Positions 3,157 to 31,881 of a DNA stretch of 35,853 nucleotides are shown piece by piece. Below the pieces are notes generated by a model. That model was not told the origin of the DNA. It saw nothing but the letters and a program-made list of their open reading frames with translations, and ran no database searches. The position numbers were made by a program, and so were the translations under genes. The DNA is from a virus. Location of the stretch: IMG/VR virus record IMGVR_UViG_3300023296_000005. One strand, written 5' to 3'. Position 1 is the first letter of the stretch; each line of letters begins with the position of its first letter.

Positions 3157-4995
3157 ATGATAATTAACGGCGACAGTATGGAAGTATTAAAAACACTGGA
3201 CGAAAACTCGGTAGACTCAATTGTTACCGATCCGCCCTATGGTTTATCATTTATGGGTAAAGCCTGGGATCACTCAGTACCTAGTGCTGAATTGTGGCAA
3301 GAAGCCCTTAGGGTGTTAAAGCCTGGTGGCTATCTACTAGCATTCGCAGGAACTCGCACCCAACACCGTATGGCTGTAAACATAGAGGACGCAGGCTTTG
3401 AGATAAGAGACATGATAGCTTGGGTGTATGGTTGTCTAAGCGAAGATACCGAAATACTAACTAAGGACGGGTGGAAACTGTACCATAAAAACATATTATC
3501 TGATAGCGTACTATGCTATAATATAGACAATGACACCTACGAATACAACCAACCAACTAAAAAATACTGGTACAGAAACGAACATACCGCCTACAGCATT
3601 AAGTCAGATACTACAGACCAAATCGTCAGTAGAAACCATCGTGTTATTGTTGAACGAAACGGAAGAAAAGAGTTTGCCTACGCCGAAACACTGGAACGCC
3701 AAGAGGGTGTACCCGTACTGGAAAGCCTGTCTAGTTTGCCAGACACCATTTATGACGTACACCAAAGAGCAAGCACAACGAAACAAGACTTGCTCAACCG
3801 AGTGTGCGAACAAGATGATAGGCAAAGCCAACAGTGGGAAGAAGCAGACAAAACAGAAGTGTCCAGTCTGCGAGCAGATGTTCTATCCAGCGAGCCAGAG
3901 CAAGAACAAGCCAAGAATAAACTGCTCAAGTATATGCAACGGTTACTTACGTGGCAAAGAGTGGGGTACACACGCCTACAAGGGCAGAGCCAACTGGACA
4001 CCAGAGAGCGAACTAGCACTCAAGCAACGAATGACGGGCGAAACGAATCCAAGCTGGAAGGGTGGAGTTACCTATCGCAACCGCAAGGGCAAATACGCCG
4101 AGCAAGCGATAAAATACGTCAGATGTCCAAAAGATTATTTAGCTATGGCGAGGACAGACGGCTATGTTATGGAACACCGACTATTAGTAGCTATGCAGAT
4201 GCAACGACCACTTACGAGAGCCGAGTGCGTACATCACATCAATCACGACGCAACGGACAACAGAATAGAGAACTTAATGCTATTCAAGACCAACGGGGAA
4301 CACAAGAGATACGAGTGGGGTCAAGCCATAGTACCACTTTGGCAACCGTAACACCAATTGAGTATAACGGTCATGTCTGGTGCGTTGAAGTGCCAACGGG
4401 TGCATTTGTAGCAAGGCGTAACGGTAAGGTATTTATTACAGGCAACTCAGGCTTCCCTAAAAGCCATAATATAGGCAAGGCTGTGGATAAGATGCAGGGT
4501 AATGAGAGGGAAGTAAGTGGTACTGGTACTGCTGGTGCTGGATTCAACAAGGTTAAAGGATTTGGTCAGAACACTACAAAAGGGGGAGAAGCTACTACTG
4601 AGTGGGATGAAACCAAAGGCACATCACCCCACGAAGGCTGGGGCACTGCACTTAAGCCTGCACTAGAACCTATAACAGTAGCTCGTAAACCATTCAAAGG
4701 TACAGTAGCAAACAACGTACTAGAGTGGGGTACAGGTGGTATCAATATAGATGGTTCGAGGGTAGGGACAGATATAATGCCAGCCGTAGAGATTAAACAT
4801 AGTTATGGTAATGGGAGCGATAATCATTTCGGCGGTGGAAAACCCAGAGGCAAAGTAACAACAACCCAAGAAGCACAAGGCAGATTCCCTGCTAACCTAA
4901 TACTGTCGTATCCAGAAGACGAGTACACACTAAAGGACAACGTAGCTCCTGATGAACTAAGAAAACTAGCGGAGTATTTAGATGCGAACGCCTAA
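3157..4995 (+). CDS. N6/N4 DNA methyltransferase, N-terminal gene fragment, containing an intein
   Basis: DPPYG catalytic motif. WVYG / SGFPKS is interrupted by a Hint element. Downstream motifs: ALKPALEPITVARKP, GGINIDGSRVG, GRFPANLIL. Confidence 0.85.
   Translation: MIINGDSMEVLKTLDENSVDSIVTDPPYGLSFMGKAWDHSVPSAELWQEALRVLKPGGYLLAFAGTRTQHRMAVNIEDAGFEIRDMIAWVYGCLSEDTEILTKDGWKLYHKNILSDSVLCYNIDNDTYEYNQPTKKYWYRNEHTAYSIKSDTTDQIVSRNHRVIVERNGRKEFAYAETLERQEGVPVLESLSSLPDTIYDVHQRASTTKQDLLNRVCEQDDRQSQQWEEADKTEVSSLRADVLSSEPEQEQAKNKLLKYMQRLLTWQRVGYTRLQGQSQLDTRERTSTQATNDGRNESKLEGWSYLSQPQGQIRRASDKIRQMSKRLFSYGEDRRLCYGTPTISSYADATTTYESRVRTSHQSRRNGQQNRELNAIQDQRGTQEIRVGSSHSTTLATVTPIEYNGHVWCVEVPTGAFVARRNGKVFITGNSGFPKSHNIGKAVDKMQGNEREVSGTGTAGAGFNKVKGFGQNTTKGGEATTEWDETKGTSPHEGWGTALKPALEPITVARKPFKGTVANNVLEWGTGGINIDGSRVGTDIMPAVEIKHSYGNGSDNHFGGGKPRGKVTTTQEAQGRFPANLILSYPEDEYTLKDNVAPDELRKLAEYLDANA
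3433..4446 (+). mobile_element. Intein (338 codons) inserted between WVYG and SGFPKS
   Basis: Starts CLSEDTEILTKDGW. Has a block-B-like VSRNHRVIV. Ends HVWCVEVPTGAFVARRNGKVFITGN with Ser at +1. Excision restores a contiguous conserved motif. Confidence 0.8.
3530..4351 (+). CDS. HNH homing endonuclease in the +1 frame inside the intein (true start uncertain; a GTG at 3707 is possible)
   Basis: Two CxxC...CSxxC zinc ribbons, NPSWKGG, and HHINHDATDNRIENL. The stop falls at the start of the C-terminal Hint block. Confidence 0.75.
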   Translation: MTPTNTTNQLKNTGTETNIPPTALSQILQTKSSVETIVLLLNETEEKSLPTPKHWNAKRVYPYWKACLVCQTPFMTYTKEQAQRNKTCSTECANKMIGKANSGKKQTKQKCPVCEQMFYPASQSKNKPRINCSSICNGYLRGKEWGTHAYKGRANWTPESELALKQRMTGETNPSWKGGVTYRNRKGKYAEQAIKYVRCPKDYLAMARTDGYVMEHRLLVAMQMQRPLTRAECVHHINHDATDNRIENLMLFKTNGEHKRYEWGQAIVPLWQP

Positions 4996-5575
4996 TACTA
5001 ATTGCGACGTGTGTAATGCCGAGTTATACAGGCGACCAGGCGACCAAGCTAAGTTTAATTCAGTTTGCTGTAGGGGTTGTCGGTCAGAGCTATACAAGAA
5101 CAGAGAGCCATCACCCAACCTATTACTTGGCAGAGTTAAGGGCAATAACCATTTAACTGGTATTCCTAAAACAGAATTACACCGCAACAAGATGAAAAAG
5201 ATAATGAGTGAATGGTGTTCTAACAACACAGATAAGGTAGCCGAAAGAGCAAAGAAAACACGCATGGAAAACCACTATCTATGGAATGGTGGCTCAACTA
5301 TACTAAACCAAAAAATACGCAGAATGATAAATATGCGAAACTGGCAAAAAAGTGTCAAAAAAAGAGATGGCTATGTTTGTTTGTGCGGCTCTACCGAGAA
5401 CCTTGAAGCCGACCATATAGTAGAACTTAGAACACTATTGGTTGAACATAATATAAAATCAACCGAAGAAGCTAGGGCCTGTGTGGAGCTATGGGATATA
5501 TCAAACGGACAGACACTATGCCGTAAATGCCACTATGCCAAAGACGGTAGACAATTTAGAAAGGTAACCGCATGA
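4982..5575 (+). CDS. Free-standing HNH endonuclease that splits the methyltransferase gene
   Basis: CDVC...CCRGC ribbon. CLCGSTENLEADHIVE...NGQTLCRKCHYAK HNH motif. The start overlaps the upstream stop by 14 nt, and the stop overlaps the downstream ATG (ATGA). Confidence 0.85.
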   Translation: MRTPNTNCDVCNAELYRRPGDQAKFNSVCCRGCRSELYKNREPSPNLLLGRVKGNNHLTGIPKTELHRNKMKKIMSEWCSNNTDKVAERAKKTRMENHYLWNGGSTILNQKIRRMINMRNWQKSVKKRDGYVCLCGSTENLEADHIVELRTLLVEHNIKSTEEARACVELWDISNGQTLCRKCHYAKDGRQFRKVTA

Positions 5576-6504
5576 ACATCGACAAGACAACATTTGATAA
5601 ACTGCCAGATGAAATAAAGAGGCTATTTGTTAAAGCGCCCAATCCTGGTAGTGATGAGGTAGTAGGGTTGTTTCCTGATACTAAGACAAACTCAACGGGC
5701 AAGAATAGCCCATCAGATTATAATACTAAAAGTGTTTTTGGTGCTGGAACGGGTAGTGGTGCTAAGCCTTACGGTGGCGACTCTGGCTCTGCTGCTCGCT
5801 TTTTTTATTGTGCGAAAAGTTCAAAAGCAGAACGCAATAAAGGGCTTAACAGGCTTAACTGTGCTATAATAGATATATGCAAAGACGAAAATACGGAACA
5901 GGTCACATCACTCCTAAGGGATATATTAGAATCAATACCCAATTTGAACATAGACGAGTCTGGATTGAGGCTAACGGTGCAATACCCAAAGGATACTATG
6001 TCCACCATATTAACCACGATAAATCAGATAACCGACTTGAAAACCTACAGCTTGTTGATGCAATCACCCACAAGAGAATCCATGAAGGATGTATTGTCAA
6101 AGATGATGAATGGCTTAAGCCCTGTGGAGTCTGTAAAGAGTTTAAGCGAATTGACGATGACAACTGGTACTTCTCAAGAGAAGGGTGGATTAGCTACGGA
6201 AGATGTAAGAAATGCCATGTATCAAAGGTTGTTGAAGCTAAAAGACGAAAGCGAATGGAAGCCAAGAACCTCGACACATCCAACGGTTAAGCCAGTCCGC
6301 CTGATGCAATACCTAGTCAAGCTAGTAACACCAGTGGGCGGTATTGTCCTCGATCCATTTAACGGCTCAGGCACTACAGGCATAGCTTGTAAGCTCGAGG
6401 GCTTTGAATACGTGGGTATTGAGCTAGACCCAGAATACTGCACCCTATCAGAGGCTCGTATAGAGGCATGGGCAATAGAAGCAGAACAGGTAAGTATGCT
6501 ATGA
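5572..6504 (+). CDS. N6/N4 DNA methyltransferase, C-terminal gene fragment, with an inserted segment of about 140 aa
   Basis: GSDEVVGLFP, GDSGSAARFFYCAKSSKAERNKG, HPTVKPVRLMQYLVKLVTP, and VLDPFNGSGTTGIA (SAM-binding motif). Confidence 0.85.
   Translation: MNIDKTTFDKLPDEIKRLFVKAPNPGSDEVVGLFPDTKTNSTGKNSPSDYNTKSVFGAGTGSGAKPYGGDSGSAARFFYCAKSSKAERNKGLNRLNCAIIDICKDENTEQVTSLLRDILESIPNLNIDESGLRLTVQYPKDTMSTILTTINQITDLKTYSLLMQSPTRESMKDVLSKMMNGLSPVESVKSLSELTMTTGTSQEKGGLATEDVRNAMYQRLLKLKDESEWKPRTSTHPTVKPVRLMQYLVKLVTPVGGIVLDPFNGSGTTGIACKLEGFEYVGIELDPEYCTLSEARIEAWAIEAEQVSML
5877..6290 (+). CDS. HNH homing endonuclease (HNH_3-like) in an alternate frame inside the methyltransferase C-fragment
   Basis: GYIRI...EHRRVWIEANGAIPKGYYVHHINHDKSDNRLENL plus a CGVC...CKKCH ribbon. 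The stop lies within the host HPTVKP codons. Confidence 0.8.
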   Translation: MQRRKYGTGHITPKGYIRINTQFEHRRVWIEANGAIPKGYYVHHINHDKSDNRLENLQLVDAITHKRIHEGCIVKDDEWLKPCGVCKEFKRIDDDNWYFSREGWISYGRCKKCHVSKVVEAKRRKRMEAKNLDTSNG

Positions 6505-11880: not shown

Positions 11881-12651
11881 ATGACTAACACACTAGATGA
11901 GATATTTAACGAAGACTGCCTAGAGACTATGAAGCGTATGCAAGATAGCTCTATAGACCTAACTGTTACCTCACCACCATACGATAACCTCAGAACATAT
12001 AATGGCTTTGAGTTTGACTGGCACAAGACCATAGAGGAGTTGTACCGAGTCACAAAAGAAGGCGGTGTAGTTGTCTGGGTAGTAGGTGATGCAACTATCA
12101 AGGGTTCTGAGACAGGAACGAGTTTCAAACAGGCTCTTTATGCTATGGAGTGCGGATTTAACTTGCATGACACAATGATATATGAAAAAGCTCAAGCCTG
12201 TTTTGGGTCAAACAATTGTTATTTACAAGCCTTTGAGTATATGTTTATATTTGCAAAAGGGAAGCCGACCCGATTGAACTTTATCAGAGACCGTGAAAAC
12301 GTCAGAAGTGGAGTGGAATCAATGGGCAATGGTGGTATATCAAAAGATGGCGTTAAACCAAAACGTATAAAAAAAGAGATGAATAAGTTAGGCAAAAGAA
12401 AGAATATATGGAGGTTTGGTGTGGGCGGAGGAAATACGGGGCATCCAGCTATATTCCCCGAAAGACTAGCTCACGACCACATAATCTCTTGGAGCAACAA
12501 AGGCGATACGGTTTACGACCCATTTATGGGTAGTGGCACAACAGCAAAACTCGCCAAACAACTAAATCGTAAGTACATAGGCAGTGAGATAAGCAAAGAA
12601 TACTGCGATATAGCAAATGACCGCCTAACCCAACTAAAGGAGAATAAGTAA
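11881..12651 (+). CDS. DNA methyltransferase, beta-class N4-C/N6-A (SPPY)
   Basis: TSPPYDNLRTY, HPAIFPERLA, DPFMGSGTTAKLA. RBS GAGGAGGAG. Confidence 0.85.
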   Translation: MTNTLDEIFNEDCLETMKRMQDSSIDLTVTSPPYDNLRTYNGFEFDWHKTIEELYRVTKEGGVVVWVVGDATIKGSETGTSFKQALYAMECGFNLHDTMIYEKAQACFGSNNCYLQAFEYMFIFAKGKPTRLNFIRDRENVRSGVESMGNGGISKDGVKPKRIKKEMNKLGKRKNIWRFGVGGGNTGHPAIFPERLAHDHIISWSNKGDTVYDPFMGSGTTAKLAKQLNRKYIGSEISKEYCDIANDRLTQLKENK

Positions 12652-14431: not shown

Positions 14432-14817
14432 TGCGTGATATTAAGTTTAGAGCGTGGGACACAGTAGATAATAATTACTGGCAAGGTATTTACTTGCAGT
14501 CCGTACCTGCTATGTATTTGCCGCCAAAGTTCAAGCAAAACGAACACGCACTTGTTTGGCAACAATACACAGGAATTAAAGATAAAAATGGCGTAGAGAT
14601 ATACGAGGGAGATATAATTTCTTTAATTCGCTGTTTAGACAAACACTTTATTTGTATGTGCAATAAACTGCCAGACAAAGATTTTACTGACGTAGTTATA
14701 TTTGAAAACGGTGCGTTTACCTGTAATGAATTGGGTAATATACCTGATTATTACGAAGTCATAGGCAACATATATGAGCACGGTTATTTACTGGAAAACG
14801 AAAGCAAAAAGGTGTAA
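14431..14817 (+). CDS. YopX-family protein
   Basis: MRDIKFRAWD...QQYTGIKDKNGVEIYEGDII...EVIGNIYEH. Confidence 0.8.
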   Translation: MRDIKFRAWDTVDNNYWQGIYLQSVPAMYLPPKFKQNEHALVWQQYTGIKDKNGVEIYEGDIISLIRCLDKHFICMCNKLPDKDFTDVVIFENGAFTCNELGNIPDYYEVIGNIYEHGYLLENESKKV

Positions 14818-14826
14818 AATGATAGT

Positions 14827-15318
14827 ATGCACTCAAAAGAAACTCGAAAAAAAATTGGCGACGCACTCAGAAAAGAAAAAAAGTTCAACTGTGATTACTG
14901 TAAAAAAGAATCTGTTACAAAACCATCCCATTATGCCAGAAAGAAAAAGCATTACTGCTCAAGGCTGTGCTACTCAAATGACAGGGAATATAACTATAAG
15001 TCCCACGAACAAAACTCTTGGAAGGGTGGGATTAGCAGCTATGAGTCTCATAAAAAATGGGTGTCAAAGAATAAAGAACGTATGTCGCACCTCAAGGCAA
15101 GACGCTACGCAAGAGAAAAGGGGGCTGAGGGTTTTCACACTCTTGAAGAATGGCAAAGACTTAAAAGCATTTATAATGATAGGTGCGCTTTTTGCAAAGA
15201 AAGTAAGTTACTCACAAAAGACCATGTTATGCCACTATCAAAAGGCGGCTCAGACTATATTACTAACATACAGCCACTATGCAGAAATTGTAATAGTAAA
15301 AAGTCGGCTAAGTTTTGA
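14827..15318 (+). CDS. HNH endonuclease, the fourth in this genome
   Basis: CDYC...CSRLC ribbon, NSWKGG, CAFC...DHVMPLSKGGSD...NIQPLCRNCNSKK. Confidence 0.85.
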   Translation: MHSKETRKKIGDALRKEKKFNCDYCKKESVTKPSHYARKKKHYCSRLCYSNDREYNYKSHEQNSWKGGISSYESHKKWVSKNKERMSHLKARRYAREKGAEGFHTLEEWQRLKSIYNDRCAFCKESKLLTKDHVMPLSKGGSDYITNIQPLCRNCNSKKSAKF

Positions 15319-15357
15319 CATATACGAAACCCCTGAACTATTAAAGGAGGCAGCGTA

Positions 15358-15624
15358 ATGGACATAAACAAACTAATGGAACGCTATAACATATCCCACG
15401 GTATTGAAAACGACCAGGTGGACATAGACATGTTTAAGGCAGAACTTGCGGAGACAATTGCAACCGAGAAACTAGACACCGCTTACGAGATCACGCTAAA
15501 GTACGCCTGTATGAGCAAATGGCAACTACTACGCACAGACTTTAACCACGACTTAGATCGCATGGAAGATGAACTTGGAGAGCGCATGGAAGATGAACTT
15601 TGTATATGGGAGTGCAAGCTATGA
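15358..15624 (+). CDS. Hypothetical protein containing a 24-nt tandem duplication (RMEDELGE/RMEDELCI)
   Basis: RBS AAGGAGG. Repeat copies at 15559-15576 and 15583-15600. Confidence 0.7.
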   Translation: MDINKLMERYNISHGIENDQVDIDMFKAELAETIATEKLDTAYEITLKYACMSKWQLLRTDFNHDLDRMEDELGERMEDELCIWECKL

Positions 15625-21232: not shown

Positions 21233-21610
21233 ATGACAACTACAAAGCAAGTTAGAGACTACATTCCCAACCCAGAAGGCAAGGGTGGCTTTCAGGATCG
21301 TCCTCAAGACCGCTCTGATGGTCGTTGGGATAAAGCTGACTCTATTAGCTACCAGTACAGCAAGCTCCTTAGAATGGGCGAGAAAGAGTTTGAAGACTTC
21401 GTTCCAGAAACAGTTGCACAAAGGATTGCTCTTGTCAGGCTTAACCAATCTATTAAGGCAGACGGACTTGCTGACACTAGAGAAGTAACAGACCGCACAG
21501 AAGGCAAAGCACCACAGTTTATTGGCTTGGGCGACAAGGAAGATTACAACATAGCATTGGTGGAGTTTATAAATGGCGACGACAAAGATACAGATACCCC
21601 AGGAGTTTAA
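21233..21610 (+). CDS. terS: Terminase small subunit (putative)
   Basis: Lies immediately upstream of TerL and overlaps it. NPEGKGGFQDRPQDRSDGRW-type N-terminus. Confidence 0.55.
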   Translation: MTTTKQVRDYIPNPEGKGGFQDRPQDRSDGRWDKADSISYQYSKLLRMGEKEFEDFVPETVAQRIALVRLNQSIKADGLADTREVTDRTEGKAPQFIGLGDKEDYNIALVEFINGDDKDTDTPGV

Positions 21611-22820
21611 GGAGTTATTTAATCCTTACTGGCGTTACTTCCTTGTCTACGGTGGACGAGGTAGCTTAAAGTCACACACTGTAGCAAGAAGGCTAGTTAT
21701 TGTTGCACGTGAACGCAAGGTGCGTATTCTTTGCACCCGTGAGTTGCAAAAGTCAATCAAGGATTCAGTACATAAGCTTATTGCTGACATTATTAGCGAG
21801 TACGGCTTTACTGACTTCGAGGTGCAAAAAGATGCAATACGCAACACTGTGACTGGATCAGAGTTTATCTTTACTGGTATACGAAACAATACAAACGAAA
21901 TCAAATCAATGGAAGGTATTGACTTTTGTTGGTGTGAAGAAGCACACGCACTGACCGAAGCATCTATTGACATCCTTACACCTACCATACGCAAGCCAGG
22001 TTCACAAATTATATTCACGTACAACAGGCTTAATGAACTTGACCCAATACACAGCAAGTTTGTTATAAACAAGAAAGCAAAGACATGTGTTATCAACGTC
22101 AATTATGAAGTAGCAATTAAGTACGGTTGGTTTCCTGATGTGCTACAGCAAGAAATGGAGCTTGACAAACTAGAAAACCCAAGCTTGTACGCACACAAGT
22201 GGCTCGGTGAACCGCTTAGTCAGACCGACACTGCAATTATTAGCAGAGATGCAATTATAAACGCTATGCAGCGCACTATAAAGCCAGAGGGAGCTATTGA
22301 GATTGGCGTTGACGTTGCGCGCATGGGCGGAGACCGCACCGTATTCTTTAAGCGCAAGGGTTTGCGACAAGAGAACAAACGCATTTACAGCAAGCTACGA
22401 ACTACAGAAGTGTGCGATAAACTTGAGATGTTTGCAGACTTTGACAAAGAAGTGTTGATAAAGGTTGATGATACTGGTGTTGGCGGAGGTGTTACTGACG
22501 AGATGATGGAGCGTGGTTACAATGTTATGCCAATTAACTTTGGTGCTAAAGCAAGCGACCCCGACAAATACACTAATCTTATCAGCGAAGCATGGTTCTA
22601 TATTCAATCACACATCAATGAAATGCAATTAGACATGGACACTGATTTAATTATGGAGCTATCCTCAAGGCAGTGGAAAATGGACGCAAAAGGCCGTAGG
22701 GCGGTTGAGAGCAAAGACGACTACAAAAAGCGCGGTTTTCGCTCACCCGACATTGCCGATGCCTTAATACTTTGTTATTATTCTGGTAATACACTTGACA
22801 TGGATGATATTTATCTTTAA
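21573..22820 (+). CDS. terL: Terminase large subunit, PBSX/Terminase_3-like
   Basis: Walker A YGGRGSLKSH, and CWCEEAH as Walker B/C-like. C-terminal nuclease region includes IGVDVARMGGDRTV. Confidence 0.85.
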   Translation: MATTKIQIPQEFKELFNPYWRYFLVYGGRGSLKSHTVARRLVIVARERKVRILCTRELQKSIKDSVHKLIADIISEYGFTDFEVQKDAIRNTVTGSEFIFTGIRNNTNEIKSMEGIDFCWCEEAHALTEASIDILTPTIRKPGSQIIFTYNRLNELDPIHSKFVINKKAKTCVINVNYEVAIKYGWFPDVLQQEMELDKLENPSLYAHKWLGEPLSQTDTAIISRDAIINAMQRTIKPEGAIEIGVDVARMGGDRTVFFKRKGLRQENKRIYSKLRTTEVCDKLEMFADFDKEVLIKVDDTGVGGGVTDEMMERGYNVMPINFGAKASDPDKYTNLISEAWFYIQSHINEMQLDMDTDLIMELSSRQWKMDAKGRRAVESKDDYKKRGFRSPDIADALILCYYSGNTLDMDDIYL

Positions 22821-22878: not shown

Positions 22879-24861
22879 ATGAAGTTTACTGATAGAGCAA
22901 AAGCAGCACTAAGTGTTCTTACACAAAAACAACTTGGTAATTCACTCGGTACCGTTATTAGGAACCTTTCAAATGCCTCAACCTTTGATCCACAAAATCA
23001 AGTAAGGGGAATCACCTTTAAGGCTATTGACAAAATTGGTATGTCTACTAGTGTCTACGAACCCAAAGCCGTAAGAGGCAATGGCGATGTATACGTCAAT
23101 CACCCAATTATCACACTTGCTAAAAATCCAAACCCCTTAACAAACTCGTCAGACTTTATTCACCTATGGGCTATGATTTACGAAATATACGGTGAGACAT
23201 TCTGGTACTTAGCACGAGGCGAAAGCACTCGCAGGGTTAAAGAAGTCTATTTGCTTAACCCAATGCAGGTTGAGCTAAAGTTAAGCGATGGCGAAGTAGT
23301 TGGTTATATCTTGCACAAGAGTAATGGAACACAAGTACCACTTATGCTAGATGAAATCGTACACGACAAACGACCAAATCCGTTTAACGAGTTTCGTGGC
23401 ATGTCGGTACTTGAGCGTGCATCTGTATATGTTGACACCGAGATCACAACATCTGTATTCACCTTGAACTACATGCGAAACAACGCAAGCCCAAGCGGTA
23501 TTGTAACGCTGCCTAACATGGACAAGGAAGTATTTAAGCAGTTTGCTCAACAATGGCGCGAAGGTTATGAAGGACCACACAACGCTGGTAAGACAGCATT
23601 TATTCGTGGTGATGGCGTAGACTTCAAAGCTGTTGGCGCAACACTTAAAGACGTTGACCAAAAAGTTACAAGAGACATGGCTAAAGAAGATGTACTTATG
23701 ATGCTCGAAGTTCCAAAGGCTTTGCTTGGTATTGCAGATGGTTCTGGTCAGGCACGAGCAAACGTTGAGGCTGTTCACTACATCTACAACAAAGAAAAGA
23801 TTGACCCAATCATGGAGCGCCTTGACCGTATCTGGGAAAAGATTGCAAAGATTGGTGGCTTTGCTGAAATCATGGACATACAGCACACTTCGCCTATTCC
23901 AGAAGATAAAGAGTTTAGACTAAAACGCCAAAAAGATGGTGTTAACGTATGGCTTACAGTTAATGAAGCACGAGAGATGGACGGACTTGGACCAATCGAC
24001 GGCGGTAACATTTTAATGCCACGCAATGCAATTCCACAAGCAGCACCAATCGCAAACGCTTTTACAGCAAAAAAGATAACCATGAAGCGTGAATTATCAA
24101 GTACAGAAAAGGTACTAGCGCTTAATGCAGAACAAGAGTCATTCCGCAAAGACCTTGTTGCTATCAACGACATCTACGCCACTAAGCTAAAGACAGAGAT
24201 TGACAAGTTTTCAAAGAAACAAGAGGCTATTGTAATTGGTAAGATTGACGCAACCAACAAGAGCTTTGAAGAGTATTTGTTTAGCATTAAAGAGGATAGC
24301 ATTGCACTTTCACTTTTGCTTGTACCTATTGTTATCGAGTTGATGGAAACACAAACCGAGGGTGTCGCAAACTTTATTAGCGGTGAACTTCTGACAATCA
24401 GCCCAGAGATTAGAGAAGGCGTAAACCAAAACATGTTACGGATTGCTGGCCTGTACAACCAAGACACTATTAAGGCACTAGAGCAGACACTTGCTGCTGG
24501 ACAAGGTGCTGGCGAAAGCCTAGTTAAGTTAAAGAAACGAGTCGAACAGACCTTTGGAGACGCTCAGGGCTACCGAGCCGAACGTATTGCACGAACAGAA
24601 AGCTTGCGTGCCAGTAACTCAACAGCAGAGCTTACATACAAGCAAAGTGGCTTTACAACAGTTAAATGGTTTACAAACCCAGGAGCTTGTTCATTTTGCC
24701 TAACGTTTGAAGGACAGACAAAAACAATTGGTAGCAGCTTTGCTAACATAGGTGACGTTGTTACAACCGCACAAGGCGACCAGATGCAGGTTGAATACTC
24801 TGACATCGGAACACCACCATTACACCCTAATTGCACCTGCTCATTAGTGCCGGAGAATTAA
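22879..24861 (+). CDS. Portal protein fused to a MuF/SPP1 gp7-like head morphogenesis domain
   Basis: The N-terminal ~400 aa are portal-like. The C-terminal part reads YRAERIARTESLRASN...CSFCLTFEG...PPLHPNCTCSLVPE. Confidence 0.75.
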   Translation: MKFTDRAKAALSVLTQKQLGNSLGTVIRNLSNASTFDPQNQVRGITFKAIDKIGMSTSVYEPKAVRGNGDVYVNHPIITLAKNPNPLTNSSDFIHLWAMIYEIYGETFWYLARGESTRRVKEVYLLNPMQVELKLSDGEVVGYILHKSNGTQVPLMLDEIVHDKRPNPFNEFRGMSVLERASVYVDTEITTSVFTLNYMRNNASPSGIVTLPNMDKEVFKQFAQQWREGYEGPHNAGKTAFIRGDGVDFKAVGATLKDVDQKVTRDMAKEDVLMMLEVPKALLGIADGSGQARANVEAVHYIYNKEKIDPIMERLDRIWEKIAKIGGFAEIMDIQHTSPIPEDKEFRLKRQKDGVNVWLTVNEAREMDGLGPIDGGNILMPRNAIPQAAPIANAFTAKKITMKRELSSTEKVLALNAEQESFRKDLVAINDIYATKLKTEIDKFSKKQEAIVIGKIDATNKSFEEYLFSIKEDSIALSLLLVPIVIELMETQTEGVANFISGELLTISPEIREGVNQNMLRIAGLYNQDTIKALEQTLAAGQGAGESLVKLKKRVEQTFGDAQGYRAERIARTESLRASNSTAELTYKQSGFTTVKWFTNPGACSFCLTFEGQTKTIGSSFANIGDVVTTAQGDQMQVEYSDIGTPPLHPNCTCSLVPEN

Positions 24862-29796: not shown

Positions 29797-30059
29797 TGTC
29801 CATTCCTTCTTTCATTTCATATTACGGCTATACTAATAGTCAAGTCCTTGATGAGTTTGCAAGGGTATACTTTGCGCTTACTGCTGAAATGAAAAAGGGT
29901 CGTGCTGCAGCAAGACTTGAAAGAATCCAAGATAACGCCATACCAAACGGCGGAGGTGAAGAAGCAAAAAGTATTGTTAATGACCTTATAAAAGATGCCG
30001 AGGGCTATGACCAGATTATTCAACAGGCTAAAAACCTGAGGAGTATTAGAAATGGCTAG
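29796..30059 (+). CDS. Tail assembly chaperone, second ORF (gpT-like), in the -1 frame relative to 29428-29796
   Basis: TAATG overlap. The -1 frame is open from 29730. Confidence 0.5.
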   Translation: MSIPSFISYYGYTNSQVLDEFARVYFALTAEMKKGRAAARLERIQDNAIPNGGGEEAKSIVNDLIKDAEGYDQIIQQAKNLRSIRNG

Positions 30060-31881
30060 TACCAATGTTGGCTCAATCCATTATGAACTTGGCTTAAATA
30101 CAGGTAAGTTTGACGCAGCTTCTAATAGTCTTGGCAAAAAGCTAGACGGCATTGGCAAAAAGATGCAAGACACTGGCAAAAAAATGACCATGTTTGTAAC
30201 CGTTCCTGTCGTTTTGGGCTTTGTCGGAATGGTGAAAGCCGCATCTGACCTTGATGAAACTATGAACAAAATGGAAGTTTCATTTAAGGATCAATCAGAA
30301 GTTGTAAAGAAATGGTCAAAAACATCAATTGACAGTATGGGACTTGCACAACAAAGCGCCCTTGATGCCGCTGCACTGTTCGGTGATATGTCCACAGCAA
30401 TGGGGCTATCAACCGTTGAGGCTGCAGACATGTCTACTAGCCTTGTGGGTCTAGGAGCTGATATGGCTTCGTTTAAGAACGTTTCCTTTGAAAGAGCGCA
30501 AACAGCGCTTGCTGGTGTGTTTACGGGCGAGACAGAAGCTCTAAAAGGGCTTGGTGTTATTATGACAGAAACAAACCTGTTAGCATTTGCTCAAGCTCAA
30601 GGCATTGAAAAAACCGTCAAAGAAATGAATCAAGCCGAAAAGGTACAGCTTAGGTATGAATACTTGATGTCAGTTACAACAAACGCTCAAGGTGACTTTA
30701 TACGTACAGCCGATGGGACAGCTAACCGTACACGAAAGATGATGGAACAGTTCAAAGAACTTTCGGCAGAGCTTGGAACAATTTTGCTACCAATAGCCGA
30801 CAGGGTGCTTGCGTTCGCATCTAACATGATTGCAAAGTTTTCTGCTTTGTCAAGAGAACAGCAGACTCAAATACTTATGTGGGCTGGCGTTGCCGCTGCT
30901 ATCGGGCCAAGCATTCTTATATTAGGAGCTACCGCAAGAAGTGTTAGCACTTTAATAGTTGCGTTTGGCGCACTAACACGAGGACTTGTTGCGGTACGAA
31001 TAGCCGTACTTGCTATGTCTGCGGCACTTACTATCACACCACTTGGTCTTATGCTTACTGCAGCCACGCTACTCGGCGCTGCTATCTTTGGCATAGCAAC
31101 AAGTAGTAACCGAGCTGACAATGCGTTGAACAGGCTTACGGCTGCACAGAACACCCTAAAAGAATCAACAAATAATCTAAAAAATGCTCAAGATGCGCTT
31201 AGTGGCGCTCAGCTTCAAGTTGAAGGAGCAGCATTGCGCGCGGAACAAGCACAGCTTAATTACAATCAAACTGTTAAAAACTTTGGAAGAGATTCTTTGG
31301 AAGCTCGCATTGCGTTGCACGACCTTAAAGTTTCAAATCAGGGGTTGGCAGATGCTACAAAATTAGTGGCAGATCGAACCAGGGAATCACAAGAAGAACA
31401 AAATAAGATTGTAAAAGCCAAACAGGCAATTATCAATGCAAACAACCAGATAGCTGCATCTGCAGCAAATATGTCTAATCAATTAAGAAACGTTGCGGCA
31501 AATGCAAATACAGCACGTAACGAGATTACACGCGCTCAAGCAGCCGGCAGAGCAGTACCAGCAGCAACTCAACTACAAGCGGCAGGACTACCAAGCATGA
31601 ATATTCCCCGACGAGCTTCTGGTGGTCCAGTATCAGCCGGGCAACCTTACTGGGTTGGCGATAACGCAAACGGAAGTCTGAACAAAACAAGTGAGTTATT
31701 TGTACCTAAACAATCAGGAACAATTATGAACCAAGACCAACTTAGCCCAGGTGGTAGCGACTTTAAGATGTACGGCAACATTAACATTGGCAATAAATCA
31801 GACGCAGATTATTTCTTTGAAAGATTAAACCGTAACCAGTCACTTAGTTTAATGGGCGTAGCAGAAAGAGGCATGGCATGA
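30052..31881 (+). CDS. Tape measure protein
   Basis: 609 aa. TP901-type core (FGDMSTAMGL...ALKGLGVIMTETNLLAFAQAQGI), internal TM helices and coiled coil. Confidence 0.85.
   Translation: MASTNVGSIHYELGLNTGKFDAASNSLGKKLDGIGKKMQDTGKKMTMFVTVPVVLGFVGMVKAASDLDETMNKMEVSFKDQSEVVKKWSKTSIDSMGLAQQSALDAAALFGDMSTAMGLSTVEAADMSTSLVGLGADMASFKNVSFERAQTALAGVFTGETEALKGLGVIMTETNLLAFAQAQGIEKTVKEMNQAEKVQLRYEYLMSVTTNAQGDFIRTADGTANRTRKMMEQFKELSAELGTILLPIADRVLAFASNMIAKFSALSREQQTQILMWAGVAAAIGPSILILGATARSVSTLIVAFGALTRGLVAVRIAVLAMSAALTITPLGLMLTAATLLGAAIFGIATSSNRADNALNRLTAAQNTLKESTNNLKNAQDALSGAQLQVEGAALRAEQAQLNYNQTVKNFGRDSLEARIALHDLKVSNQGLADATKLVADRTRESQEEQNKIVKAKQAIINANNQIAASAANMSNQLRNVAANANTARNEITRAQAAGRAVPAATQLQAAGLPSMNIPRRASGGPVSAGQPYWVGDNANGSLNKTSELFVPKQSGTIMNQDQLSPGGSDFKMYGNINIGNKSDADYFFERLNRNQSLSLMGVAERGMA

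Follow-up and report, generated by a model that had tools for sequence, protein, structure and literature searches.

How can one stretch of DNA encode a protein-splicing element in one reading frame and an endonuclease in another, inside a gene that stays open throughout? This question is raised by an N6/N4 DNA methylase gene carried by a virus (IMG/VR record IMGVR_UViG_3300023296_000005), of which the whole stretch of 35 853 nucleotides (nt) was analysed and is called the window hereafter. Our answer, to which we assign a probability of roughly 0.8, is that the methylase holds a composite selfish element, i.e. an intein (positions 3433–4446) with an HNH homing-endonuclease gene (3530–4351) in its endonuclease slot and in frame +1. 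The intein was most likely colonised by a free-standing, separately translated HNH homing-endonuclease gene, the pair moving as one unit.

The host open reading frame (ORF; 3157–4995, plus strand) encodes 612 amino acids (aa) forming the N-terminal part of the methylase. Alignment with homologues delimits an N-extein (3157–3432) that contains a DPPY motif, ends in ...IAWVYG and matches both Pfam N6_N4_Mtase (E = 1.4e-8) and PHROG family phrog_67 (E = 4e-33). The insert is 1014 nt long (338 codons), is read in the host frame (frame 0) and runs from Cys1 to Thr336-Gly337-Asn338, with Ser+1 at 4447–4449; its junctions, marked here by a slash, read ...IAWVYG/CLSEDTEILT... and ...KVFITGN/SGFPKS. 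The C-extein (4447–4995) continues with SGFPKS...GWGTALKPA...GRFPANLI and closes with a 30-aa tail, LSYPEDEY...YLDANA (4903–4992), before the stop. An earlier note, made from the letters alone, had placed the insert in this ORF, and its coordinates and sequences were confirmed as they stood. An insert of 190–356 aa occupies the same site in 118 of the 120 best host-protein homologues, and all 118 start with C[LI][SD], end with GN and are followed by Ser; homologues of the methylase number more than 8000. Exact excision of 3433–4446 rejoins WVYG and SGFPKS, which is the conserved motif of uninterrupted homologues: Y-[GAF]-SGFPKS is unbroken in loci L009–L012, L039, L041–L043 and L045, and WLYGSGFPKS in gp64 of Mycobacterium phage Mantra. 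The contiguous motif that the note had cited is therefore real. Residues 90–167 and 403–431 of the outer protein also matched PHROG families with intein-derived segments (ribonucleotide reductase and PhoH). Megablast of 3157–6504 against 50 697 phage records gave no match, and the sole match of the intein in a sensitive blastn search was 72 nt in the methylase of Mycobacterium phages Dorothy and RedBird.

Translated in frame 0, the insert has the predicted architecture of an intein with a Hint fold. A model built with AlphaFold2 (AF2) from 41 aligned sequences reached a predicted local distance difference test (pLDDT) score above 90 for residues 1–140 and 300–338 (91–96 in the C-terminal lobe) and fell below 50 for residues 176–296. 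The N-terminal Hint lobe (3433–3780, residues 1–116) is modelled as β-rich up to about residue 116, where a helix follows, and contains block A, with Cys1 at 3433–3435, and block B, S66-x-x-H69, at 3628–3639. The C-terminal lobe (4330–4446, residues 300–338) contains block F, with Cys317 at position F:4 (4381–4383), and block G, Thr336-Gly337-Asn338 (4438–4446). In the place of an endonuclease domain lies a linker (3781–4329) predicted to comprise a helical hairpin (residues 117–174) and a disordered stretch rich in Q, R, S, T and E (residues 176–296); Pfam returned no match on the frame-0 insert, and the low complexity that had been described for this stretch agrees with the model. Using the predicted model as query, the top Foldseek matches in the PDB were all inteins or Hint domains (probability 1.00), with the AceL NrdHF intein (6zgq) first (E = 6.5e-6) and the DnaX mini-intein, Hedgehog and bacterial intein-like (BIL) domains after it, while the N-lobe sequence itself matched 6zgq at E = 1.5e-5 and the Npu DnaE intein weakly (phmmer, PDB). 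Residues C1, S66, H69, C317, T336, G337 and N338 are invariant in the 41-sequence alignment, whose members are 35–68% identical overall to the window copy, and Ser+1 is likewise invariant among the homologues examined. Block B reads S66-R-N-H69 and aligns to that of 6zgq. Both the modelled fold and this invariance bear out the proposal of an intein whose Hint domain has Cys1, an SRNH block B, a terminal Asn and Ser+1.

The same strand encodes, in frame +1 of the insert ((3530–3433) mod 3 = 1), a protein of 273 aa (3530–4351). It had been taken for an HNH enzyme, and profile searches agree: it scores 27.8 bits against Pfam HNH_3 (PF13392; gathering threshold 24.8) and matches about 10 PHROG HNH families (best E = 5e-13). 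An N-terminal helical segment is followed by two CxxC...CxxxC zinc ribbons (~3728–3805 and ~3860–3937), NPSWKGG from 4046 and the HNH core, VHHINHDATDNRIENL...EHK (~4229–4306). A word-indexed search returned 646 HNH homologues, of which the best 120 are 47–76% identical and almost all stand-alone calls of 225–311 aa; among the homologues listed, stand-alone calls span 130–320 aa. An exhaustive search of 50%-identity representatives gave 51 HNH clusters at E ≤ 1e-30 and 632 at E ≤ 1e-10. The alignment keeps the N-terminal segment M.T.IPPT....I.QTKSSPETIV.LLNE, both zinc ribbons, NP[AS]WKGG and the HNH core; H235, H236, H239, N244, N255 and H258 are invariant and all retained in the window copy, and the ribbon cysteines (C67, C70, C88, C92, C111, C114, C132 and C136) are kept in at least 90% of the sequences. 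The AF2 model of the HNH protein has a mean pLDDT of 88.7, and BFVD gives phage HNH and homing endonucleases as its top structural matches (best E = 3e-12). The Foldseek comparison with the PDB was uninformative for this multi-domain model (predicted template modelling score 0.46; I-HmuI at rank 29), and a PDB profile search with the HNH alignment gave weak zinc-ribbon matches and nothing else. The ORF does not stop exactly where the C-terminal Hint block starts, as had been claimed: its stop codon (4349–4351) falls about 7 codons inside the first strand of that lobe, which starts near 4330. The HNH ORF of relatives ends 8 to 95 nt ahead of the intein end.

Two frames that are both open over such a length are not expected by chance. 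The HNH codons were subjected to 20 000 synonymous permutations and to resampling from the window codon usage, 40 000 shuffles in all. Across the HNH ORF the host frame has 0 stops, compared with a mean of 11.4 under synonymous permutation (minimum 2, never 0) and of 20.1 under resampling (minimum 6); the third frame has 29. Because no stop is observed and none of the 40 000 shuffles reaches 0, the open host frame is maintained by selection, beyond chance. The claim that more than 200 host-frame codons are stop-free over a gene read in another frame thus holds, and the shuffling proposed along with it gives a clear answer: an open frame of this kind is not common. A further 8 viral contigs and 10 contigs of metagenome-assembled genomes, from independent assemblies with a GC content of 35–66%, likewise have the HNH in the +1 register relative to the host frame and keep both frames open. 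The labels of the latter are Methanospirillum, Kiritimatiellae, Chloroflexota, Acidobacteriaceae, Aestuariivirga, Spirochaetes, Bacteroidetes, Giesbergeria, Armatimonadota and Gallionella. Synonymous shuffling predicts 3–21 stops in each of these 18 related loci. The layout is common in metagenomes.

Codon alignments of 19 loci show which frame is under selection in each part of the insert. In 3433–3580 and 4363–4446 the frame-0 wobble position is the most variable (entropy ~1.5–1.7 bits, vs 0.24–0.65 at positions 1 and 2 of the best-conserved bins), whereas from ~3730 to ~4330 it is host codon position 1, i.e. the HNH wobble; pairwise amino-acid identity in this central part is 0.21–0.87 in the HNH frame and 0.11–0.45 in frame 0. 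Substitutions relative to the closest relative, locus L048, which carries proteins P0001 (76% HNH identity) and P0122, number 6/3/19 at host codon positions 1/2/3 in the C-terminal Hint lobe and 55/28/18 in the HNH core. Purifying selection thus acts on the Hint ends through frame 0 and on the centre through frame +1. Given the entropy and substitution patterns, the insert consists of Hint coding sequence at its ends and of an HNH gene in between, and the alternative reading of that gene need only avoid stops. The zone 3583–3702, which carries Hint block B when read in frame 0 and the N-terminal helices of the HNH (IPPT...ILQTKSS.ETIV.LLNE.E) when read in frame +1, appears constrained in both: entropy is low at all three codon positions (0.29–1.06), the frame-0 wobble falling from ~1.6 to 0.77–1.06, and only 2/1/7 of 40 sites each (10 of 120) differ from L048, compared with ~20–30% elsewhere. 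About 40 codons therefore seem to be constrained by both products. The pLDDT exceeds 90 here in both the frame-0 and the HNH model, a confidence that may partly reflect the conservation imposed by the other frame. On the L048 contig (JGI 3300016717, 2601 nt) an automatic gene caller had annotated the HNH as a gene but fragmented the methylase, with no gene over the methylase-intein frame; a separate short ORF was called further downstream, and a run of N lies just past SGFPK.

Class 1 inteins use Cys1 or Ser1 as first nucleophile and usually have Asp at F:4 and a penultimate His, while class 3 inteins are marked by a WCT triplet (Trp B:12, Cys F:4 and Thr G:5) and lack a nucleophile at position 1. 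The window intein has marks of both. It carries an invariant Cys1, with Cys317 at F:4 and Gly337 as penultimate residue instead of the usual Asp and His, and it carries invariant Cys F:4 and Thr G:5, with Val and not Trp at B:12 and a nucleophile, Cys, at position 1. AceL NrdHF is an experimentally proven class 3 intein with Ala1, an 'MCT' triplet (Met B:12, Cys124 F:4 and Thr144 G:5) and no penultimate His (PMC7891396), and it is the closest characterised intein in both solved structure (PDB 6zgq) and sequence. The two share a block B of the form S-x-N-H-R, Cys F:4 and Thr G:5 (19 residues apart here vs 20 in AceL NrdHF), a non-His penultimate residue, a terminal Asn and Ser+1, and both are phage-associated and colonised by a homing-endonuclease gene. 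AceL NrdHF, however, starts with Ala1 and lies in two pieces, with a free-standing GIY-YIG gene between them ('fractured gene'), whereas the window intein has its invariant Cys1 and is contiguous, since the alternative frame of the invading gene has been kept open. The predicted catalytic pattern hence resembles that of AceL NrdHF, while Cys1 argues the other way; the first thioester might form at Cys1 or at Cys317, and the intein may belong to either class. Of the class 1 assignment made previously, the invariant Cys1 stands, but Cys F:4, Thr G:5 and the non-His penultimate residue follow the class 3 pattern.

As to how the HNH would be produced, 18 of the 19 loci have an ATG in the HNH frame 1–29 codons 5' of the conserved IPPT, usually just past the last upstream stop in that frame. 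It lies 4 codons 5' of IPPT in six loci, five of which show a GGAG/GAGG Shine-Dalgarno-like motif a few nt before it, within Hint codons. These start codons and motifs favour an initiation event of the HNH's own, inside the gene, and speak against frameshifting. Also considered was a promoter within the gene that would yield a leaderless HNH mRNA, namely TGCTATAAT (3514–3522), which ends 7 nt before ATG 3530. It was dismissed as the Hint-lobe codons L-C-Y-N; relatives read TGCTATGAT and TGCTACAAC, so that it is not conserved, and a promoter scan found no enrichment.

These observations suggest the following cycle. Ribosomes on the methylase message would read through in frame 0 and yield a precursor in which the two Hint lobes are joined by a linker of ~180 residues, part helical and mostly disordered, this linker being the alternative reading of the HNH gene, kept stop-free by selection. 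The Hint domain would then splice and join ...WVYG to SGFPKS..., while the HNH protein would arise from a separate initiation event at an internal ATG of its own. It would presumably cut intein-less methylase alleles, so that repair copies intein and HNH gene together. The presumed target, i.e. the intein-less allele, reads ...ATAGCTTGGGTGTATGGT/TCAGGCTTCCCTAAAAGC..., also written as ...TGGGTNTAYGGN/WSNGGNTTYCC...; a degenerate search found no unoccupied copy of it elsewhere in the window. We infer splicing, separate translation, cleavage specificity and homing from the features described above, site-specific cleavage in particular from context.

The intein and the HNH appear to travel together between host genes, because the same unit is found in another one: in locus L049 (2501–4222, HNH frame from 2907) the same Hint lobes and a +1 HNH sit in a gene for a DnaC/DnaA-like AAA+ ATPase, with junctions ...CYRYA/CLSEDTEVLT...FLTGN/SEFP. 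Close to it, the contig also carries an N6_N4 methylase and a separate HNH_3 gene. Variant states occur within the family as well. P0236 is a 190-aa mini-intein from which the HNH has been deleted, and P0190 is a decayed or scrambled copy, with a 276-aa insert in which part of the HNH peptide is shifted into the host frame; judged from their sequences, both look like stages expected from a homing cycle. In P0244 (801 aa) an indel fuses the HNH frame to the C-terminal Hint lobe and the C-extein. The family is under-counted here, as the search with the intein protein alone was confined to 931 word-index candidates.

Could the unusual register be an artefact, i.e. a canonical intein with an in-frame HNH that two compensating indel errors have put out of frame? 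Indel variants or errors do occur in the family, as P0244 and the frame change in locus L036 show, but errors would not leave 273 out-of-frame codons stop-free (0 of 40 000 shuffles), register and open frames are identical in the 18 independent assemblies from different samples and of different GC content, and an in-frame Hint-HNH-Hint protein, or any in-frame version of this HNH family, is lacking among the homologues listed except for the indel variant P0244. This explanation is scarcely credible. Programmed +1 ribosomal frameshifting from the methylase frame, which would give a fusion of N-extein, N-terminal Hint lobe and HNH, is very improbable. It would sit well with an ATG 3530 that lacks a Shine-Dalgarno motif, and the zone 3583–3702 could in principle conceal a recoding signal; against it stand the start codons, which in 18 of 19 loci come shortly past the nearest preceding +1-frame stop, often a few nt behind a GGAG-type motif, and the fact that no slippery site or conserved stimulatory structure was seen and that Rfam finds nothing in the window.

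We regard it as improbable, too, that the insert does not splice and that the methylase retains the frame-0 polypeptide as a loop that it tolerates, on the model put forward for the ShiLan domain, with the Hint-like ends as relics. Such a loop has some appeal in that the same HNH family occurs, with the host frame open, in methylases without Hint lobes (the uninterrupted loci L009–L012, L039, L041–L043 and L045), that ShiLan-type insertions are thought not to splice (PMC11855218) and that curated intein hidden Markov models (HMMs) stay below threshold. Yet residues needed only for splicing (C1, H69, C317, T336, N338 and S+1) are invariant across sequences that are 35–68% identical overall, and the Hint lobes show the classic frame-0 wobble pattern of purifying selection. 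Moreover, the insert lies inside the invariant YG-SGFPKS motif, where a loop of 338 residues is unlikely to be tolerated, while the Hint-less insertions are found ~15 residues further downstream in a variable loop. A copy past its active phase is a less remote but still unlikely alternative: the intein would still splice, the HNH would be barely or no longer expressed or active, and the element would be inherited vertically. Decayed and mini-intein relatives exist, the start codon found 4 codons before IPPT in six relatives is missing from the window while the remaining one has no Shine-Dalgarno motif, and targets may be scarce now that nearly all close homologues hold the intein. The HNH ORF is intact, however, with every family-invariant Cys, His and Asn kept, and the substitutions relative to the closest relative cluster at the HNH wobble (55/28/18), which points to continuing purifying selection.

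The composite intein and HNH element also has to be set against several points that weigh on the other side. Splicing, a separate HNH polypeptide and cleavage are predictions, and recent homing is conjectural. The 19 loci used for the statistics were chosen by a pattern that itself demands an open frame, and 2 of 20 candidates with Hint blocks failed that pattern (the C-terminal part of L028 diverges and L036 changes frame). Because the sole canonical HNH start of the window, ATG 3530, has no Shine-Dalgarno motif and the ATG present in six relatives 4 codons before IPPT is missing, the window copy of the HNH may be poorly expressed. The penultimate residue is Gly and not His, which implies an atypical chemistry of Asn cyclisation, as in the proven AceL NrdHF intein (PMC7891396); it is a trait of the whole family and not a defect of this copy. 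Finally, TIGR01445 (intein_Nterm) reaches 14.2 bits against a cut-off of 24.5. Of the profile searches that the earlier note had proposed for both frames, the one in frame +1 therefore gave an HNH_3 match above threshold, while the one in frame 0 stayed below threshold with TIGR01445 and gave none with Pfam. Since the curated intein HMMs remain sub-threshold, we would regard these sequences as a divergent intein family.

Non-canonical inteins with the endonuclease in another frame or strand are credited to Gorbalenya 1998 by papers of 2025–2026, among them the dnaX study (bioRxiv 10.64898/2026.09.14.751524). A survey of actinobacteriophages reported in-frame HNH, antisense LAGLIDADG, antisense VSR-like and EndoVII-like homing endonucleases (HENs), the last in 'frame 3', proposed that a free-standing HEN invades an intein and predicted that such inteins have been widely overlooked (bioRxiv 10.1101/2025.01.02.630785), and a cyanobacterial dnaX intein has an out-of-frame LAGLIDADG under purifying selection (bioRxiv 10.64898/2026.09.14.751524). 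The ShiLan domain is a hidden out-of-frame HNH in a mycobacteriophage methylase, without splicing motifs (PMC11855218). With out-of-frame endonucleases in inteins and the hidden HNH of ShiLan already published, the view that no such organisation had been described could not be upheld.

The window element shares with the inteins that carry out-of-frame HENs the intact splicing lobes, an endonuclease-domain region that is unstructured in an intein frame that stays open, and an endonuclease encoded by a separate ORF inside the intein, on the same strand and in another frame, which carries the purifying selection in the overlap; the codon-position result obtained here agrees with the dN/dS result of the dnaX study. 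It differs in its zinc-ribbon HNH, a type that those papers give as in-frame only, in its N6/N4 methylase host and in a family that spans bacterial, archaeal and phage metagenomic contigs and not one clade. In canonical HNH inteins (Dalgaard et al. 1997, as cited in bioRxiv 10.1101/2025.01.02.630785), an intein is likewise combined with an HNH-type homing endonuclease, but the HNH is a domain of the intein polypeptide there and a separate +1 ORF here. Fractured genes or genes-in-pieces (split inteins with a free-standing HEN, PMC2677866; split nrdA, PMC3045599) are similar in that a free-standing endonuclease gene has invaded a gene or intein, whereas the invasion at 3433–4446 left the reading frame unbroken, so that neither trans-splicing nor subunit assembly would be needed. 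The literature searched contained no account of a bona fide intein whose HNH is out of frame, and none of this family of methylase inteins. Similar layouts were described in 2025–2026, and what sets the present one apart is the type of HNH, an overlap that reaches the splicing domain, the hybrid catalytic pattern and a broad distribution.

The ShiLan domain (PMC11855218; PMC9957025) shares the host enzyme family with our insert and consists of a zinc-ribbon-flanked HNH out of frame in an open methylase frame. Mantra gp64, from a ShiLan-domain phage, has both the WLYGSGFPKS and the GWGTALKP motif, its YG-SGFPKS site is empty, and its HNH, 29% identical to that of the window (tblastn E = 2e-9), follows EPVVVARKP in frame +2. 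The ShiLan domain thus differs in its site after EPVVVARKP, in its +2 HNH and in having no splicing motifs, and it is thought to stay in the protein; the HNH of the window is at +1, in YG/SGFPKS, and is flanked by Hint lobes with all catalytic residues. On these sequence comparisons, the window insert would not be of the ShiLan type and would be related to it by HNH homology only. The Hint-less methylases (L009–L012, L039, L041–L043 and L045) contain shorter HNH relatives (mostly ~167–190 aa) at +1 with the methylase frame open, in a variable loop between SGFPKS... and ...GLGTALKPA (e.g. 235–735 in L009 and 2689–3648 in L039). They are ShiLan-like, yet occupy another site and frame than ShiLan; L044 is similar, without the exact motif.

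A bolder reading, which we put forward tentatively and consider somewhat doubtful, is that the out-of-frame layout is a stable, very successful design and not a short-lived step toward an in-frame HNH intein. According to it, ~40–100 codons (~3583–3850) would encode two folded modules, with frame 0 giving the Hint β-strands and catalytic block B and frame +1 the N-terminal DNA-binding module of the HNH, made up of helices and zinc ribbons. Being translated on its own, the endonuclease would be dosed independently of methylase and intein, and the splicing chemistry would be a hybrid in which Cys1 acts alongside Cys F:4 and Thr G:5 of the class 3 type, in the absence of a penultimate His. The family could, on the same reading, be the largest of non-canonical inteins, and its HNH lineage may have entered methylases nested in an intein, as an open-frame loop insertion and, through a distant ShiLan homologue, at a third site. 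Gene callers miss or mangle such overlapping genes, with the consequence that such inteins are filed as decaying or mini-inteins. The family lets the strength of stop-codon purging in an alternative frame be measured and tests whether two folded domains can share codons. Protein engineers may also be drawn to a compact natural intein with an unusual set of catalytic residues (Cys1 together with Cys F:4 and without a penultimate His), and the family supplies HNH enzymes whose recognition sites, within a conserved methylase motif, are presumably long.

A second interruption of the methylase, of the genes-in-pieces kind, is due to a free-standing HNH gene (4982–5575, plus strand; PHROG HNH families to E = 5e-9). 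This gene overlaps the stop of the upstream fragment (3157–4995) by 14 nt and the start of the downstream one by 4 nt (ATGA), and its alternative frames contain 12 and 20 stops. The C-terminal fragment (5572–6504, plus strand), with the head MNIDKTTFDKLPDEIKRLF... and the motifs GSDEVVGLFP...DPFNGSGTTG, aligns with unsplit homologues and matches Pfam N6_N4_Mtase (E = 1e-21, profile positions 140–219 of 221), which places the split at GRFPANLI/(HD)GSDEVV. The N-terminal fragment closes with its 30-aa tail, conserved as LSYPEDEY.L.D....L...YL.ANA up to the stop, and the C-terminal fragment opens with a conserved 25-aa head, M.I.K..FDKLPDEIK.LF (5572–5646). A relative that is 48% identical (L046, 4829–5473) has tail, head and an HNH (44% identity) in the same position, and the ending ...WLNENA is shared by at least six homologues in the database. 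A split intein at 4982–5575 was dismissed, the tails being only ~30 and ~25 residues long and free of Cys/Ser...Asn/Ser junctions. On this analysis, the second cut looks like an enzyme encoded by genes in pieces and reassembled via added peptides, comparable to the fragmented ribonucleotide reductase of PMC3045599. Rfam found no family in the whole window, and hence no recognisable group I or group II intron around either methylase HNH.

The C-terminal fragment of the window methylase is 310 aa long, compared with 204 aa in L046. About 100 or more extra residues (5840–6300, residues ~90–245) lie between ...KAERNKGL and THPTVKP without a family match; they may represent a further insertion, or else a region that is variable or serves target recognition.

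The window comes from the genome of a tailed phage and holds genes for terminase (21573–22820), portal (22879–24861) and tape measure (30052–31881) but no tRNAs; a near-identical contig is ENA ERZ27315896 k141_109155. A second methyltransferase (11881–12651, 256 aa, SPPY motif; phrog_67, E = 8e-57) is uninterrupted and belongs to another subgroup, without YGSGFPKS. A third HNH gene (HNH_5/HNH; 14827–15318, 163 aa) follows a complete YopX gene (14431–17) and is nested in a 194-codon ORF of another frame (14774–15358) that has no homologues and ends in IYETPELLKEAA followed by the stop. This end, IYETPELLKEAA, nearly duplicates the YopX C-terminus IYEHGYLLENE..., from which it is 550 nt away, a distance not divisible by 3. 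The frame overlapping the third HNH has 0 stops compared with 3.6 expected (P ~0.002, synonymous shuffling), and the locus may be the relic of another open-frame HNH insertion or may reflect chance.

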